Shown here in pieces: positions 34,688 to 40,700 of a stretch of DNA of 64,000 nucleotides. The DNA is from Picochlorum sp. SENEW3. Its lineage: Eukaryota. Position 1 is the first letter of the stretch. Every line of letters starts with the position of its first letter. The stretch lies in the NCBI GenBank assembly GCA_034226945.1, contig CP120464.1, positions 186,001-250,000 on the forward strand, in the 5' to 3' direction. Under the pieces are notes generated by a model, which was given only the letters and a program-made list of their open reading frames with translations, was not told where the DNA came from and made no database searches. The translations under genes were made by a program, and so were the position numbers.

Positions 34688-36736
34688 TCCCTTTTCTATT
34701 CTCCGAATATGGTAACTGCATTATGTTTAACTGTAGCATTACCATTGAAAATGAAAATACTCTATACCCTTATTATGGAACAACAAGAAGAAGAAACCAA
34801 GAAGAAGTCCTTATTAAGATTACTTAACAAGCAGTGGAGGGCCGAAAGTGGCGATTTGTGAGTTGATTAGTGCGTAAATAGATATTTGGGTAAGGCCGCT
34901 CTTAATTGATTCCGTGGTTCCCGTCCCCGAGCGAATGGATTTCGCGATGGTATGCCCAAAAAAATAGAATGCCGTCTATCTCATCACTCGTAAAGATTTT
35001 GCACTTTTCGAGGTCACCATGCGATAGAGCTCGTCAAAAGGAGTTGATTGACGGGCTTTTGGGGCCAAACTCGATCATGGACCATCGTTGATGGCCGTGG
35101 ACTGGATCCAGTCATGACTCCCCAGTCGGCCAAATTCAAATTGTGCAATTGACCTCATGGACTCTATAAGGCTCCAAAAGAGAAGAAAGAGATATGAGGA
35201 GCCACTGCATCTATACATGCTCGAATAGATCGGGGTTGGCAGAGGTCTGACGGTGATGTTGACCAGACCAGCCTTGGGGGCATGCCCCACAGGTAGCCAT
35301 ACGGTGATTTTTGACTTCAAACTCCACAAACGCTGTCTAAATTACATCTATATTGTAGAACCATTACAGAACTAGAGATTTGAAGGCATTTGGACGCCCT
35401 ATTGATGATTCTATTTTTTCGAGCTTTTCTCATTTTTCGAGCGCCTACCGACTGGATTCTGAGAATCACCTAGACGGGAACCACGGAATCAATTAAGAGC
35501 GGCCTAAACTGATTTGTAGATTGGGAGAGCTTACTTGGATTATGAGAGATCTGCAAGTGTGGATACTCATCATGGGGCATAGAGATGAAGTACAGATATT
35601 TACTAAATAATCTAATGTGACTCTAGATATCAAGTGCAGAGAAAAACCAATGGAAGAAGTGGGTAGTAGTATCATGCATGGCTCTTTTCCTTGCAAGTTT
35701 ATTGAAGGCCTGAGCCAAGAGAGCGCTTTCTGACCAAGCAGGGCGTAGGTCGGTTGCTCTATTGCGTGTGGAGACAATATCAACCAGATACTTTTCCTTG
35801 TCGTTGTCATACTTTGCTGTGCTGAGGATACAGAGAACGAAGACGTTGAACATGCTTGTGCAAGGGTTGAGGTTGGTCTGAGAGATCGTGTTTCTCCTGT
35901 GACATGACCTTCAAAAGAAATGTTCATGCTAAGTTCACATCTATATTCAAACTTTGAAACTTTCTTTTCCTACATAGACCAGTCTTTCTGGATACATTGC
36001 AAATGAAACGCTGAAACGGTTGACTTTTCATGTCACCAGGTGGTGTCCAGTCAACCCTTGAGGTCAAGGTCGACTATCGCGAACATTCGTCGCAATATCT
36101 TACTCATTTTTGAACCTTTCTACGAGTCTTTTCTACCCAAATAATCTATGTATTTTAAGAATTCTATTATTTGTGTCAGCGGGCATTATCGTTCTAGAAA
36201 GTTTACATCGAAATTCGGCCGATTCACCGAATTTTTACCTTCCGCCCGTTTCGCTTCATTATATGTCCCAGATCTCCGAATAATATCGTTTATTAAATCT
36301 TTTAAAGGTCTCTGTTGGCCGTATCGACAAAGTTATTGCTCCTCCATTGTCATCATCGCCCTCGTGCAGCGAAACGGAACACTTTCAGGAATATTCCACG
36401 CTACTAAAAGTTTTAATTTTTCATTTTCTTTCCGATTTTGAAGTCGAGCAGGGCTGAGGTTACACTACTCCCCCGCGGATTTCGTGTTTTTCGCGACGTT
36501 TTCGCGAGATTCTGACCATTTTTACGATCCAGCGACTCGAATGACACCTTAATACAATATTACATTGATTTAGGGGGGCGAGGGAATTTAATACGCGCCA
36601 GGGGAGCCGAGGGAGCGACATCGTGAAAAAGTTTGGAAGCCTATTACCGGCCCTCGAAAAAACCTCAGGGTGCATCCAGATTGGTTCAAACCAAACCCTT
36701 TTGGTTATATTGTGATTACATATCTGTATAGGAAGA

Positions 36737-37740
36737 ATGTCAGGATTGTTCGAGACGTATGAAACGTCGTATTGCGACGTTTCAACGAATGTTTCCTCGT
36801 CCCTTGGCAATCTCGGACAGGTTCCTCTCGGTATGCGCATCTGCATTCGCCATACACTCTATTGTAATAGATTATATGCATATTTGTGTGTTTGTGTAGA
36901 GCAACGGGGTGTAAAGGCGAGGCAGTTGGAACGTCAGTTGAAAGAGGCTGAACAGACCCTTCAGCGGTTGGATATGGAAGCTCGCAGTGCTCCTGCGCCA
37001 GAGTCGAGTGAGCTCGTGAAGAAGGTGAAGGGATATAGAAAGGATTGGCAAAAGCTGATGGGTGATGTGAGGCGGGTGATTCAGCAGGCTGCGAGTGCAG
37101 AGGATAGGGCAGAGTTGGGTTTGGCTGATGAGTATTATCAGACAAGTGCTGGTCAGCGGGAGCGATTGTTGACGTCGACTGAGCAATTGAATAAGACCAG
37201 TGAGAAGATTCATGAGGGGAGGAGGCAGCTATTAGAGACGGAGGTGCGTGTGAATGATGAGGATATGCTGTACATGTTGTGTTGGTGTCCCAACACGGCT
37301 ACTATGGTATTATTATTGGCATTGTTGCCGTGTGTATAGGAGGTTGGGGCAGGGATTGTGGCTGATTTGCAGCGTCAGAGGCAATCTTTGGAGGAATCGA
37401 GGCGGCGGGTTGATGATGTAAATGCGCAGATTGATTCCTCTGAAGCACTGTTGAAGAAAATGTCGAGATGGTGGCGGCGATATTTGTAATGGAGTGCTCA
37501 AGTTCTTTGTTTTTTGTGTAGGAATTGGGTGTTTCTGTGTTATCTGATCTGCAAAGGCAGAGAGAGTCGATCATGCATTCGAGGGAGACGCTGTCACATG
37601 TGGATGCCAATGTGGGCAAAGCCAGACAGGTTTTGGCAGTCATGTCTCGACGCATCACGCAGAACAAGTTCATCATGTATGGGATTATTGCCTTGTTGGT
37701 GGGAGCGATTGGCCTATTGATATGGGCGAAATTAACATAG
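36737..37740 (+). CDS. VTI1: VTI1 Qb-SNARE, TM-anchored isoform (exons 36737-36830, 36900-37243, 37522-37740)
   Basis: MSGLFETYE, LQRLDMEARS, QRERLL, ETEELGVSVLSDLQRQRE, and C-terminal TM segment FIMYGIIALLVGAIGLLIW. Confidence 0.95.
37340..37489 (+). CDS. VTI1: Alternative terminal exon of VTI1 (TM-less isoform)
   Basis: TAG acceptor at 37339, in phase with the 37244 donor. Encodes 49 aa (EVGAGIVADLQRQRQSLEESRRRVDDVNAQIDSSEALLKKMSRWWRRYL*) homologous to the downstream exon. TGTAA overlaps the stop. Confidence 0.75.
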   Translation, partial: EVGAGIVADLQRQRQSLEESRRRVDDVNAQIDSSEALLKKMSRWWRRYL

Positions 37741-37781
37741 AATATACTACTAGTAGTATTGTAACGAATGTACATTGACAC

Positions 37782-40700
37782 TTACATGGCAGGAATTTCT
37801 GGAGCAGGATTTTGGTTCATGGCTGGCATCACATTGCCATGCTCTTTGGGCGCATTGAGAGCAGCAATGTGCGTGGAGAGCGATGCACACACACCTGCTA
37901 TACCACGAAGATCTGAATGTGTGCGAATAGCGGATCGGATGCGATCCTCGTCCACAGCCCCAAATATTGTCTCAATATTGAGGCATGCCATGTCCTTGAT
38001 GGCCAAGATGACTGAGAATTGGACTCTCGCTTCCAATGCCAGAAAGCTTACCTTGACAGCCATTTCCGACGATCCATCCATTGGAATCGGGGTTATTTCA
38101 CAGATATTGTGGCAGCTGGAGCGGATTCCATGCAACTCTTTGGCTGCCGTGGCGGCGAGTTGGAGTTGTGGGACCAGTGTTTGCATCAAACACACAAGGG
38201 CAGGTGGCTCACACGAGAAAGAGCAGACGTCCTCTTTCGAAACAAATTTCATGGCAAGCTGGTGGCATCGCTGTCGATTGTTGGCCATTGGCTTCACTGT
38301 GACTGTCACAGGGCATGAGCCAGCAGAGACCAGATCCACAAGGAACACATCTGCCACATTCAGAGTGCACGTGAGATCTTTCGCACCAATAAAGCACGAG
38401 TATATCTGCAAGCCACTACATTTTTCATACAATGTAACGTCCCTGAACTTTTGATGAATATCCTTGGCGGTGGCGTCATCATGGACTGATGCCAGTGATG
38501 CCTGTTTCAGCACCCTTTGCATGTGATTAATTTGGGCATCAACTTCCACCTTTTCTGCCTTGATCTGATTTATTTCAGCATCCAAATTATTTGCAGACGA
38601 TTCGATAACCATCAGCTGCTGCTCTCTCTCCTGATTTGCCCGTATCCTGTCCTCTGCAGCCTTACGGGCTGCCAGCAACCTCTGTTTCAGCTCCATCTGT
38701 GCAGCAATCTCTCGCCTCCTTCTGGCCATATATTCTCTTTTCTCGGCGGCAAAGGCAGAAGCCGCATTTGAGATACCTTTTGCATGCCTTTGAACTTCCT
38801 GTAGCCACGCAAGATCAGATTTCAGGCCATCATGTGCTCTACAAAGACGTCCGTGCTTGCTCTCCTCCATCTGACACCTGACATCCTTCAGCAATGCAGT
38901 TGCCTTTGCTCTGCATGCTTTCTTCAGCGAAGCGACATTGCCTCGTAAAGCTTCAAGCTGCTCGTACGATGCTGTTTGCACGTGCCTGAATATGGCTGGA
39001 TTCGTCTGGCCGAGCATAACCTCCAAGTCAGAGGCACTTGATCGCAATCGTGTGATTTCACTCTGCAACGTGTTAATAGCAGTTTCCAACTCTGCAACAT
39101 TAGGAGCAGTGATACACAAGAGCGAGTACGATTCTTTCAGATTTGATGGAATCGGATTTGGCTGCAAATCTGCATAGTTGATGGATGCACCCCTTCTCAG
39201 GTTGTCCAAAAACTGGACTTCCACAATCTTGGCAAAATCCTGAAAGGTGATGGGTGCCAAGCGAGATGGAGTAAACCCTTGGCTGAGTCGACCTGTCGCT
39301 ACAGCCGATCCTGGATAGCGCGCGGCAATAGCAGATCCAGGAGGTGCCTGAGAAGTACTGTTTGGTGGATTGTTGACTGGAATCAATGCATTTGCCCTCA
39401 CAGGTGTCCTCATGCCAGACTTGGAGACACTTCCTGGTGTACCCTTGCCTGGAATGCTATCCCTATTGGAATAGAATGACGTCCTTTGCCTCCCAAATGT
39501 AGCCGATGGAGGTGGTGATTTATACATGATGTGTGCTCCACTCCCAGCAGGCGAATGGAATGATGACTCTGGCATTTCCATATCTTCTGGCACCAATGGA
39601 AGACTCTTTCTCCTTGGAGAGGGCTTTGTGACACTCGACAATCTGTTCTTTAACCCCGCCAATACGTCGAAAGACTTGGCCTTCATACTGCCGGGTGATT
39701 CCGCCAAGAGATCCTCTTCATCATCCACCACTGCAGTATTGTTCATTCCCCCCACATTCTTGAGATGCACATTCCCAGCCATGGACATGCGTCGGGAAGA
39801 CACGCTCATCCTTCTCCCATCAACGCTGACGCGCCTTGTACTGACTGTTCCTATACTACTATCAGTGTAGTTTGGGCTTTGGAGCAGAGCTGGATGCTCT
39901 CCTGCTCCCATTTCAGGGCCTCTGACTTCCCCATCAAGAGATATAGACTTTTCCACAGATGCCAATGACGTCGCCGTCACATTATCAGCATACATTTTAC
40001 TGTACGTTTTATCGCCCATAAACATCCGGCCATGTCCTTTCAGATCGACATCCAACGTATCATCATCACCTGGCATGAATCCCCACTTGTTTTCTTGCTC
40101 TGCTCCTTCCACGCTCTTCCTTGCATCTGGAGACGTCTGAACTGGAGGACTTGGCATCACATCTTCTTTATTTTCTTTGAGACAATCATCCATCATGGCA
40201 TCCTCCTCCAACAACGTCGCCAGCCCAGGGACTGCTGCAGTAACATTGTCATGGGCATGGGCATGATACTGCTCCTCCTCCTCAGCAAGGTCACCGAGAG
40301 ATGGTAACCCAGCTGTTATATCACCTACTTTATTCGTATAATCAGCCCCCATCGGAGGAGGCGAGATAATCATTGGATCTTCACCAACAGGCTCTGCCTC
40401 CCTCTTCAGTTCCAACACACCACCTGTTGCCACCCCAGGAGGCGTCATCCCGTCATCCTTCTCAAACGTCCGTATCATCGTCAGCTCTGTATCTGGTGCA
40501 AAACTGACCCGCCTATTCTTTATGCTCATCCTTCGCTTCGACATGGTTGTCACTGCCGTGGCAGTTGTGGTTGCCAACACCCTCTTCTTTGCGCCAGTCA
40601 CACCGCCTGCACCATCCACAAGCCCCGCGTTCTGCACCACAAAAAACCATAAATAGTAAAGTATGCCAGATGATGCTCTATTTGATCAATGTCACACAAA

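Follow-up and report, generated by a model that had tools for sequence, protein, structure and literature searches.

The VTI1 gene of Picochlorum sp. SENEW3 ends in two homologous terminal coding exons that stand in tandem behind one splice donor, each with its own acceptor and stop codon; the second of them (exon B) supplies the usual membrane-anchored end of the protein, and the first (exon A) most likely gives, judging from its sequence, a minor Vti1 isoform that lacks an anchor. The gene is located at 36737-37764 of the window, i.e., of the whole 64,000-nucleotide (nt) stretch analyzed here, which covers positions 186,001 to 250,000 of contig CP120464.1. Throughout the eukaryotes Vti1 acts as the Qb-SNARE in endosomal, Golgi and vacuolar traffic, and it is taken to be tail-anchored. 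The conservation of exon A makes it likely that this exon is translated and serves as a functional alternative end of the gene. We propose that an old tandem duplication of the VTI1 last exon may have been kept as two alternative terminal exons, and that the anchorless Qb-SNARE would support or tune membrane fusion; taken as a whole this is the best explanation that we can offer, and it falls a little short of being probable.

Two terminal exons behind one donor

The region was read and translated, and it holds a VTI1-type Qb-SNARE gene of the Picochlorum type on the + strand. In what follows, X1, X2, X4 and X7 denote public sequencing runs, P with four digits a retrieved protein, and L with three digits a metagenome locus. 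The parts of the gene are as follows.

36737-36830, + strand: VTI1 exon 1, with the ATG start at 36737; it ends in phase 1 and corresponds to the N-terminus of P0005, an MMETSP transcript protein
36831-36899, + strand: intron 1, 69 nt, GT..AG; skipped in X2 contigs (depth 186.6) and X7 contigs (depth 3.4)
36900-37243, + strand: VTI1 exon 2, coding for the V-SNARE N-terminal domain and for the first half of the SNARE motif; it ends in phase 0
37244-37339, + strand: intron piece from the shared donor GTGCGT to the exon A acceptor, TAG at 37337-37339
37340-37489, + strand: exon A, the putative alternative terminal exon, 49 codons and TAA, with no membrane anchor
37485-37489, + strand: TGTAA, candidate poly(A) signal overlapping the TAA stop of exon A
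37490-37521, + strand: A-B spacer of 32 nt, with a pyrimidine tract and the TAG acceptor of exon B
37522-37740, + strand: exon B, the canonical terminal exon, coding for the SNARE C-terminal half, a basic linker and the transmembrane anchor; 72 residues and a TAG stop
37760-37764, + strand: TGTAA, candidate poly(A) signal of the main isoform, 20 nt behind the exon B stop

Exon 2 closes with the codon GAG (37241-37243), the donor GTGCGT begins at 37244, and the two TAG acceptors end at 37339 (exon A) and 37521 (exon B). The exon A peptide, EVGAGIVADLQRQRQSLEESRRRVDDVNAQIDSSEALLKKMSRWWRRYL, is followed by a TAA stop and comprises the C-terminal half of a SNARE helix from the zero-layer Gln to the Met of layer +8 and then RWWRRYL, so that the protein would end in MSRWWRRYL, whereas the translation of exon B ends in a long hydrophobic stretch. 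A sequence-only reading of this DNA had proposed the arrangement, and its coordinates, the donor, both acceptors and both peptides all hold on re-reading the sequence; a third TGTAA at 37417, within exon A, had escaped it.

The two tails align without gaps, as had been claimed, with 17 of 43 residues identical (BLASTP E 8e-11), and the similarity at the DNA level reaches into the acceptor region. Each exon alone matches V-SNARE_C (PF12352), exon A with 39.7 bits and exon B with 42.2 bits against a curated Pfam cut-off of 27.1, and the likeness is therefore far beyond chance. Upstream, V-SNARE (PF05008) matches exon 2 with 41.6 bits and exons 1 and 2 read through intron 1 with 58.7 bits (cut-off 25.9), so that both the N-terminal V-SNARE domain and the V-SNARE_C match expected of Vti1 are present. 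A transmembrane anchor is found in exon B and is missing from exon A, which stops four residues past its tryptophan pair (Trp-Trp). The A isoform would thus be a Vti1 by sequence and would not be a tail-anchored SNARE. We take Gln13 of exon A to be the SNARE zero layer, and the layers -3 to +8 are likewise assumed from heptad spacing counted from this Gln; Gln13 is invariant in 15 of 15 aligned A-type tails, and also in all 28 A-type and all 9 B-type rows of the larger alignment described below.

Exon A is preceded immediately by an in-frame TAG and its first Met is residue 41, so that it could not be translated on its own and conservation of its coding sequence requires splicing to exon 2. 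Retention of the intron was considered as a source of the A peptide and was ruled out by an in-frame stop before A in the window and in L001, L002 and L003; the intron upstream of A is open in frame only in P0038 and P0043, which are read-through open reading frames (ORFs) composed of VTI1 N-terminal sequence, intron and A-type tail. A donor at 37486 (GTAATG) that would turn exon A into a cassette was likewise rejected, since it leaves an intron of 36 nt and puts exon B out of frame. If retained, the piece 37244-37339 would extend exon 2 by an in-frame, partly hydrophobic peptide of 32 residues up to the TAG at 37337, and the public ORF calls P0004 and P0007, which end in this piece, are gene-caller artefacts on unspliced sequence.

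A-type tails in related proteins and metagenome loci

The nearest named proteins of the gene come from Picochlorum and Nannochloris. Searching 1.84 billion representatives with exon A (phmmer) produced 28 matches at E <= 0.001, of which 26 were retrieved (the two omitted are long proteins of 1862 and 1373 amino acids (aa)). The results showed that 24 of these 26 end 1-5 residues past Trp-Trp with no anchor, the other two being P0066, an anchored Vti1, and P0074, a SNAP-like protein with two motifs. Fifteen A-type tails align without a gap and share the invariant residues L10, Q13, R14, L38, M41, W44 and W45. Longer proteins were sought with a word-index search, which with exon A alone returned P0006 only and with the alignment of 15 tails (8000 candidates scored) returned 17 matches, among them P0011 as the sole full-length A-type protein. 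P0011 is an NCBI model of 200 aa from Nannochloris sp. 'desiccata' and has an A-type tail ending in KKMGRWWRF and no anchor. The nearest clusters in the ESM Atlas are Vti1-type proteins of about 180 aa from Apicomplexa or Chordata; these served as leads only and were not used as evidence.

Metagenome contigs were then scanned with seven A-type tails, giving 14 loci, and exon 2, exon A and exon B were compared with these loci by tblastn. Four of the 14 (L001, L002, L003 and L006) contain an A-type exon and, behind it on the same strand, one or more anchored B-type exons, and in the three tandem loci that have upstream sequence A is preceded by sequence resembling exon 2. The conserved start of each A exon stands immediately behind an AG acceptor in phase 0, and each A exon has its own stop. 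The spacers between A and B measure 161, 250, 184 and 97 nt in these loci versus 32 nt in the window. The exon-2 peptide of L002 is nearly the same as that of Micractinium tetrahymenae P0014, which marks the L002 locus as Chlorellaceae-like. The extra exon that the sequence-only reading had suggested looking for in relatives is therefore there, both in these four tandems and, as an A-type tail, in Nannochloris P0011, and its prediction of a Qb-SNARE with a basic and aromatic tail in place of the transmembrane anchor gains support from the sequence and from the A-type tails of relatives. In L001 (3306-3600) an intron with donor GTGCGC interrupts the B-type region after codon 26; this is the same codon position as the GTAAAT in exon A that serves as donor in the P0006 model, a match that could be a coincidence or a remnant of an ancient intron position.

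In each of the other ten loci (L004, L005 and L007-L014) a single ORF of about 165-175 codons, counted from its start Met, codes for an anchorless protein that has both a V-SNARE and a V-SNARE_C domain, and all ten end in WWRG (e.g., L008:347-853). No B-type exon follows the stand-alone ORF in L004, L005, L011 or L014, the loci with enough flanking sequence. A further stand-alone protein, P0075 of Vitrella brassicaformis (180 aa, also present as an MMETSP transcript), ends in RMSRWWNRLI. These stand-alone, anchorless Vti1-like genes code for about 165-180 aa and are mostly intronless, and we found no name for the group.

Selection on exon A and age of the duplication

Exon A is under purifying selection, as calculated from the one informative pair, L001 and L002, in which non-synonymous divergence (dN) is 0.106 and synonymous divergence (dS) 0.625, a ratio of 0.17, with 13.5 synonymous versus 10.5 non-synonymous differences (Fisher p 4e-5). 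The comparison of exon A among relatives that the sequence-only reading had called for thus turned out in its favor, and its statement that exon A keeps the SNARE register under selection is supported. Variation between strains was assessed by comparing the X2 strain with the window, which gave the following counts.

Exon 2: 2 substitutions in 344 nt, no insertions or deletions
Intron piece 37244-37339: 4 substitutions in 96 nt, 2 deletions
Exon A: 2 substitutions in 150 nt, no insertions or deletions
A-B spacer: 5 substitutions in 32 nt, one 3-nt insertion
Exon B: 3 substitutions in 219 nt, no insertions or deletions

The two changes in exon A are one synonymous change and one replacement of Gln11 by His, and the 2/150 of exon A differ from the 9/128 (plus three insertions or deletions) of its two flanks with a Fisher p of 0.026. 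In a third strain, represented by the out-of-frame ORF P0008, parsimony over the first 26 codons of exon A gave five third-position changes, one first-position change and none at second positions, in a reading in which first-position changes are mostly invisible. Together, these strain patterns indicate that exon A varies like coding sequence. The constraint also follows the helix, since in the 28 A-type rows the assigned SNARE-layer positions are less variable (entropy 0.91) than the rest (1.64). Layer +3 is relaxed in the A-type tails (Ala in 10, Leu in 5, Thr in 5, Val in 3, Gln in 3 and Asn in 2 of 28) and is Leu in 9 of 9 B-type rows.

The age of the duplication was addressed with a short, unrooted tree of 48 rows and 43 columns, from which the Trp-Trp columns were omitted. 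The rows comprise 28 A-type tails that resemble those of the tandems, together with 11 tails of the stand-alone kind and 9 of the B type; P0072 and P0076 (too short) and L009, L011 and L012 (near-copies) were excluded, and the A-type tails P0038, P0043, P0056 and P0081 also stand outside the tree. No A-type row, not even the A tail of the same locus, falls within the clade (support 99/96) that unites eight of the nine B-type rows; the ninth, the anchored Vti1 P0066, takes no resolved place. Since the B clade excludes A tails of the same locus, the duplication predates the split of five lineages and the copies have not been homogenized, so that by this tree the duplication of the last exon is old. 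An exon A that was only a decaying relic of that duplication, silent within the last intron, would agree with the lack of exon A use in the RNA contigs described below; this explanation is hardly credible, given that exon A is open, free of gaps and above the Pfam cut-off, that lineages saturated at synonymous sites have retained it in the same position, and that in comparisons of strains its flanks vary and it shows the conservation of an exon.

Transcript evidence and the possible use of exon A

The RNA data consist of assembled contigs, from four public runs, that contain the stretch, and such contigs may drop rare variants. Runs X2 and X7, from two studies, are RNA-like, both skipping intron 1 at the joint 36830^36900, and X1 and X4 are DNA-like, their contigs running through intron 1. 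The junction 37243^37522, which connects exon 2 to exon B, was present in X2 (depth 209.1) and X7 (depth 4.1), and the MMETSP transcript protein P0005 (218 aa) is exactly the sum of exon 1, exon 2 and exon B. The B form, with the usual tail anchor, is the dominant form of Vti1. Over exon A, X7, X1 and X4 have no or partial cover and are uninformative on its expression. X2 has a 335-nt contig that is colinear with 37215-37549 and carries the whole last intron, exon A included, at a depth of 20.4, about tenfold less than the spliced X2 contigs (186.6-209.1). X2 shows zero depth in intron 1 and in the upstream spacer, so that plain DNA carry-over is unlikely, and the A-bearing intron persists in about one tenth of the X2 RNA, more than intron 1 does.

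A number of observations weigh against exon A as a used end of the gene. Of the splice choice put forward by the sequence-only reading, the exon 2 to B junction stands on the X2 and X7 contigs, and the exon 2 to A junction does not: no contig in the four runs joins 37243 to 37340, with the reservation that contigs can drop rare forms, and the only joints listed in these runs are that of intron 1 and 37243^37522. The sole RNA contig over exon A is unspliced, and its translation would stop at the TAG at 37337-37339, before A. The word-index protein searches returned no transcript-derived protein joining exon 2 to A, the MMETSP transcript being of the B form, and the sole full-length green-algal A-type protein, P0011, is a genome annotation model. 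In the NCBI model P0006 (244 aa) of Picochlorum sp. BPE23, exon A is used differently, its first 26 codons being spliced onto exon B. The measure of selection has one clean pair only, the more distant pairs having dS saturated or biased by GC content and ratios of 0.16-0.83, and in the tree the A-type rows form no resolved clade of their own. Lastly, the claim that each exon has its own TGTAA is true of the window (37485 and 37760) and fails in the other tandem loci, none of the four of which has a TGTAA between A and B, and the termination mechanism is not general.

How a transcript might end behind exon A was examined from the stops of the window itself. The window has 37 ORFs of at least 200 codons, of which 11 end in TAA, and in 5 of these 11 the TAA lies inside TGTAA where about 0.7 would be expected (binomial p 3e-4); one of the five is the convergent neighbor gene. 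We take TGTAA to be the chlorophyte poly(A) signal, and with this enrichment a stop within TGTAA looks like an ordinary end for genes of this alga. The genome is compact, and the A form would probably end at the TGTAA that overlaps its stop. In relatives, a TGTAA follows the B stop by 238 nt in L001 and 164 nt in L003, and donor-like sites follow the A stop in L002 (GTGCGT, +50) and L003 (GTGAGC, +19). Where spacers are longer and TGTAA is absent, A may be a cassette exon carrying a stop, from which the same protein would be made.

The same features would also be expected if exon A were a regulatory poison exon, whose stop triggers mRNA decay and tunes VTI1 output, the peptide having no role: the A-bearing intron is unspliced at about one tenth of the spliced depth in X2, and the relatives that lack a TGTAA behind A and have donor-like sites after its stop (L002 and L003) look as they would for a cassette exon. 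A poison exon needs just a stop, however, and here the peptide is conserved with a dN/dS of 0.17; its layer residues and Trp-Trp are invariant and gap-free in 15 of 15 tails, the stop always falls 1-5 codons past Trp-Trp, independent genes encode the same kind of tail, and the 32-nt spacer of the window is too short for a downstream intron. We consider this explanation improbable.

Even less probable, and indeed very unlikely, is that exon A acts as an internal cassette, in which 37340-37417, closed by the donor GTAAAT at 37418, would be spliced between exons 2 and B to give an anchored Vti1 with an insert of 26 residues. The BPE23 model P0006 has exactly this structure, with the first 26 exon A codons between exon 2 and B; the GT at 37418 is in phase 0, and the B-type exon of L001 has an intron after the same codon. 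No contig of the four runs has 37243^37340 or joins 37417 to 37522, though, and the X2 contig passes straight through 37418; the insert would repeat part of the SNARE motif and break its heptad register, and the second half of exon A, with Trp-Trp and the stop, would be left unexplained. Through its in-frame segment of 26 residues P0006 has part of the SNARE motif twice, and in the Micractinium tetrahymenae model P0014 the coding sequence continues into the intron and the C-terminal half of the SNARE motif is missing; both models look like annotation errors that stem from this exon arrangement.

A SNARE half that is gap-free and under selection, an invariant tail and a stop that has stayed fixed despite saturated silent sites together argue for exon A as a real alternative terminal exon, and because of this pattern of conservation a poison exon, a cassette of the P0006 type and a dead relic all fit poorly.

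Predicted role of the anchorless isoform

The mechanism that we propose is as follows. The shared phase-0 donor at 37244 is normally spliced to exon B, giving tail-anchored Vti1, and splicing to the weaker acceptor at 37339, to which conservation and not RNA points, would add exon A instead. Exon A would complete the same SNARE helix up to layer +8, followed by the basic Trp-Trp tail and the stop, and the product would be anchorless. Such an isoform may be a cytosolic or peripheral Qb-SNARE that uses the N-terminal half of the motif, which both forms share, to join the same Qa/Qc/R complexes, and its Trp-Trp tail may sit at the membrane interface. Synaptobrevin-2 has a tryptophan pair beside its anchor and offers a parallel to the Trp-Trp of the A-type tails. 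With no second anchor on the Q side, the A isoform may then still promote fusion or modulate it, in the manner of recombinant anchorless yeast Vti1 in vitro.

The yeast protein (sQb) supports HOPS-dependent fusion of proteoliposomes with 'high fusion activity' (PMC9282010). It resembles the predicted A form in being a Vti1-type Qb without an anchor that can be recruited and supports fusion, and differs from it in being an engineered truncation with no dedicated C-terminal tail. Given a functional A end, an isoform that is fusion-competent or modulating is slightly favored over one that is purely inhibitory; the support for fusion by yeast sQb (PMC9282010) and the occurrence of independent genes for the same kind of protein both point this way.

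The close rival is that the A isoform is an inhibitory SNARE, which would fill the Qb slot, pass no force to the membrane and so damp Vti1-dependent fusion, a reading preferred in the sequence-only reading and in our judgment possible but on balance unlikely. All of the structural and conservation evidence fits it equally, and the relaxed layer +3 of the A-type tails could weaken C-terminal zippering. Human tSNARE1, whose main isoforms are anchorless, is proposed to act in this way (bioRxiv 10.1101/2021.02.09.430442). tSNARE1 is like the A form in being a Q-SNARE whose anchorless isoforms can enter SNARE complexes; it is unlike it in being of the Qa type and in having neither a tandem exon duplicate as its origin nor a Trp-Trp tail (bioRxiv 10.1101/2021.02.09.430442). 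That case thus concerns a Qa-SNARE, whereas anchorless yeast Vti1, a Qb, supports fusion in vitro, and since an anchorless Qb can do so inhibition is not the default (PMC9282010). The stand-alone anchorless genes (10 of the 14 loci, and Vitrella P0075) fit a positive role at least as well, and a mere competitor needs no invariant Trp-Trp tail.

Neighborhood of VTI1

Downstream, VTI1 converges on a - strand gene at 37782-40685, an ORF of 967 codons with a Spc7/KNL1 kinetochore domain (38.3 bits, cut-off 34.5), whose TAA stop lies inside a TGTAA, 41 nt from the VTI1 stop. An X2 contig (37520-37981) reaches across the ends of the two genes, whose 3' ends therefore probably overlap. Upstream, a segment of 125 nt at 36534-36658 has an X2 depth of about 1500-1850 compared with 187 for VTI1 and is also present in X7, and the contigs over it continue into unlike sequence on both sides. 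The segment probably belongs to a repeat or to some other strongly expressed transcript; there was no Rfam match in 36200-37900 and no second copy of the segment in the window.

Relation to known systems and significance

Variation in the SNARE helix and anchor by splicing has precedents in animals. SNAP-25a and SNAP-25b arise from a tandem duplicated exon 5 within the SNARE motif, in another SNARE class; anchorless variants of syntaxin 1, 2 and 3 are made by alternative splicing; and the brain form Vti1a-beta, which still has its anchor, is distinguished by a small insert. In plants, the SYP132 gene of Medicago truncatula gives the Qa-syntaxin isoforms alpha and beta through a choice between two last exons (Pan et al. 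2016; Huisman et al. 2016; both cited by PMC7145992). SYP132 is like VTI1 here in that one SNARE gene has two terminal exons coding for the end of the SNARE helix, the choice being made by splicing or transcript termination, and unlike it in that SYP132 is a dicot Qa with both ends anchored (PMC7145992), while VTI1 codes for a Qb with one end that is anchorless and whose use is presumed. Alternative SNARE terminal exons (SYP132) and anchorless SNARE isoforms in animals are therefore already known.

What appears to be undescribed is the choice between an anchored and an anchorless end in Vti1, the conservation of this choice across green algae, and the Trp-Trp-tailed anchorless Vti1-like proteins as a group. 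Open-access papers and bioRxiv contained no description that we could find of an anchorless Vti1 isoform or gene, a full-text result that agrees with the earlier statement that none was known. The gene models that need correction are flagged here, namely that of Picochlorum sp. BPE23, into which part of exon A has been merged, and that of Micractinium, which stops in the intron. More broadly, and with considerable doubt, we suggest that the anchorless Trp-Trp Vti1 proteins could be an old, widespread and unnamed class of soluble Qb-SNAREs, encoded by an alternative last exon in green algae and by a separate small gene elsewhere (Vitrella and the ten loci), which would supply a fusion-competent Qb when needed and reach membranes by complex assembly and by interfacial tryptophans, much as Vam7 does for Qc. 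If the proposed use of exon A is true, cells would be making a soluble Qb on purpose, the engineered 'sQb' of fusion biochemistry would have an equivalent in nature, and a small alga in which one gene has two ends would be a simple system in which to study the role of the second Q-side anchor.

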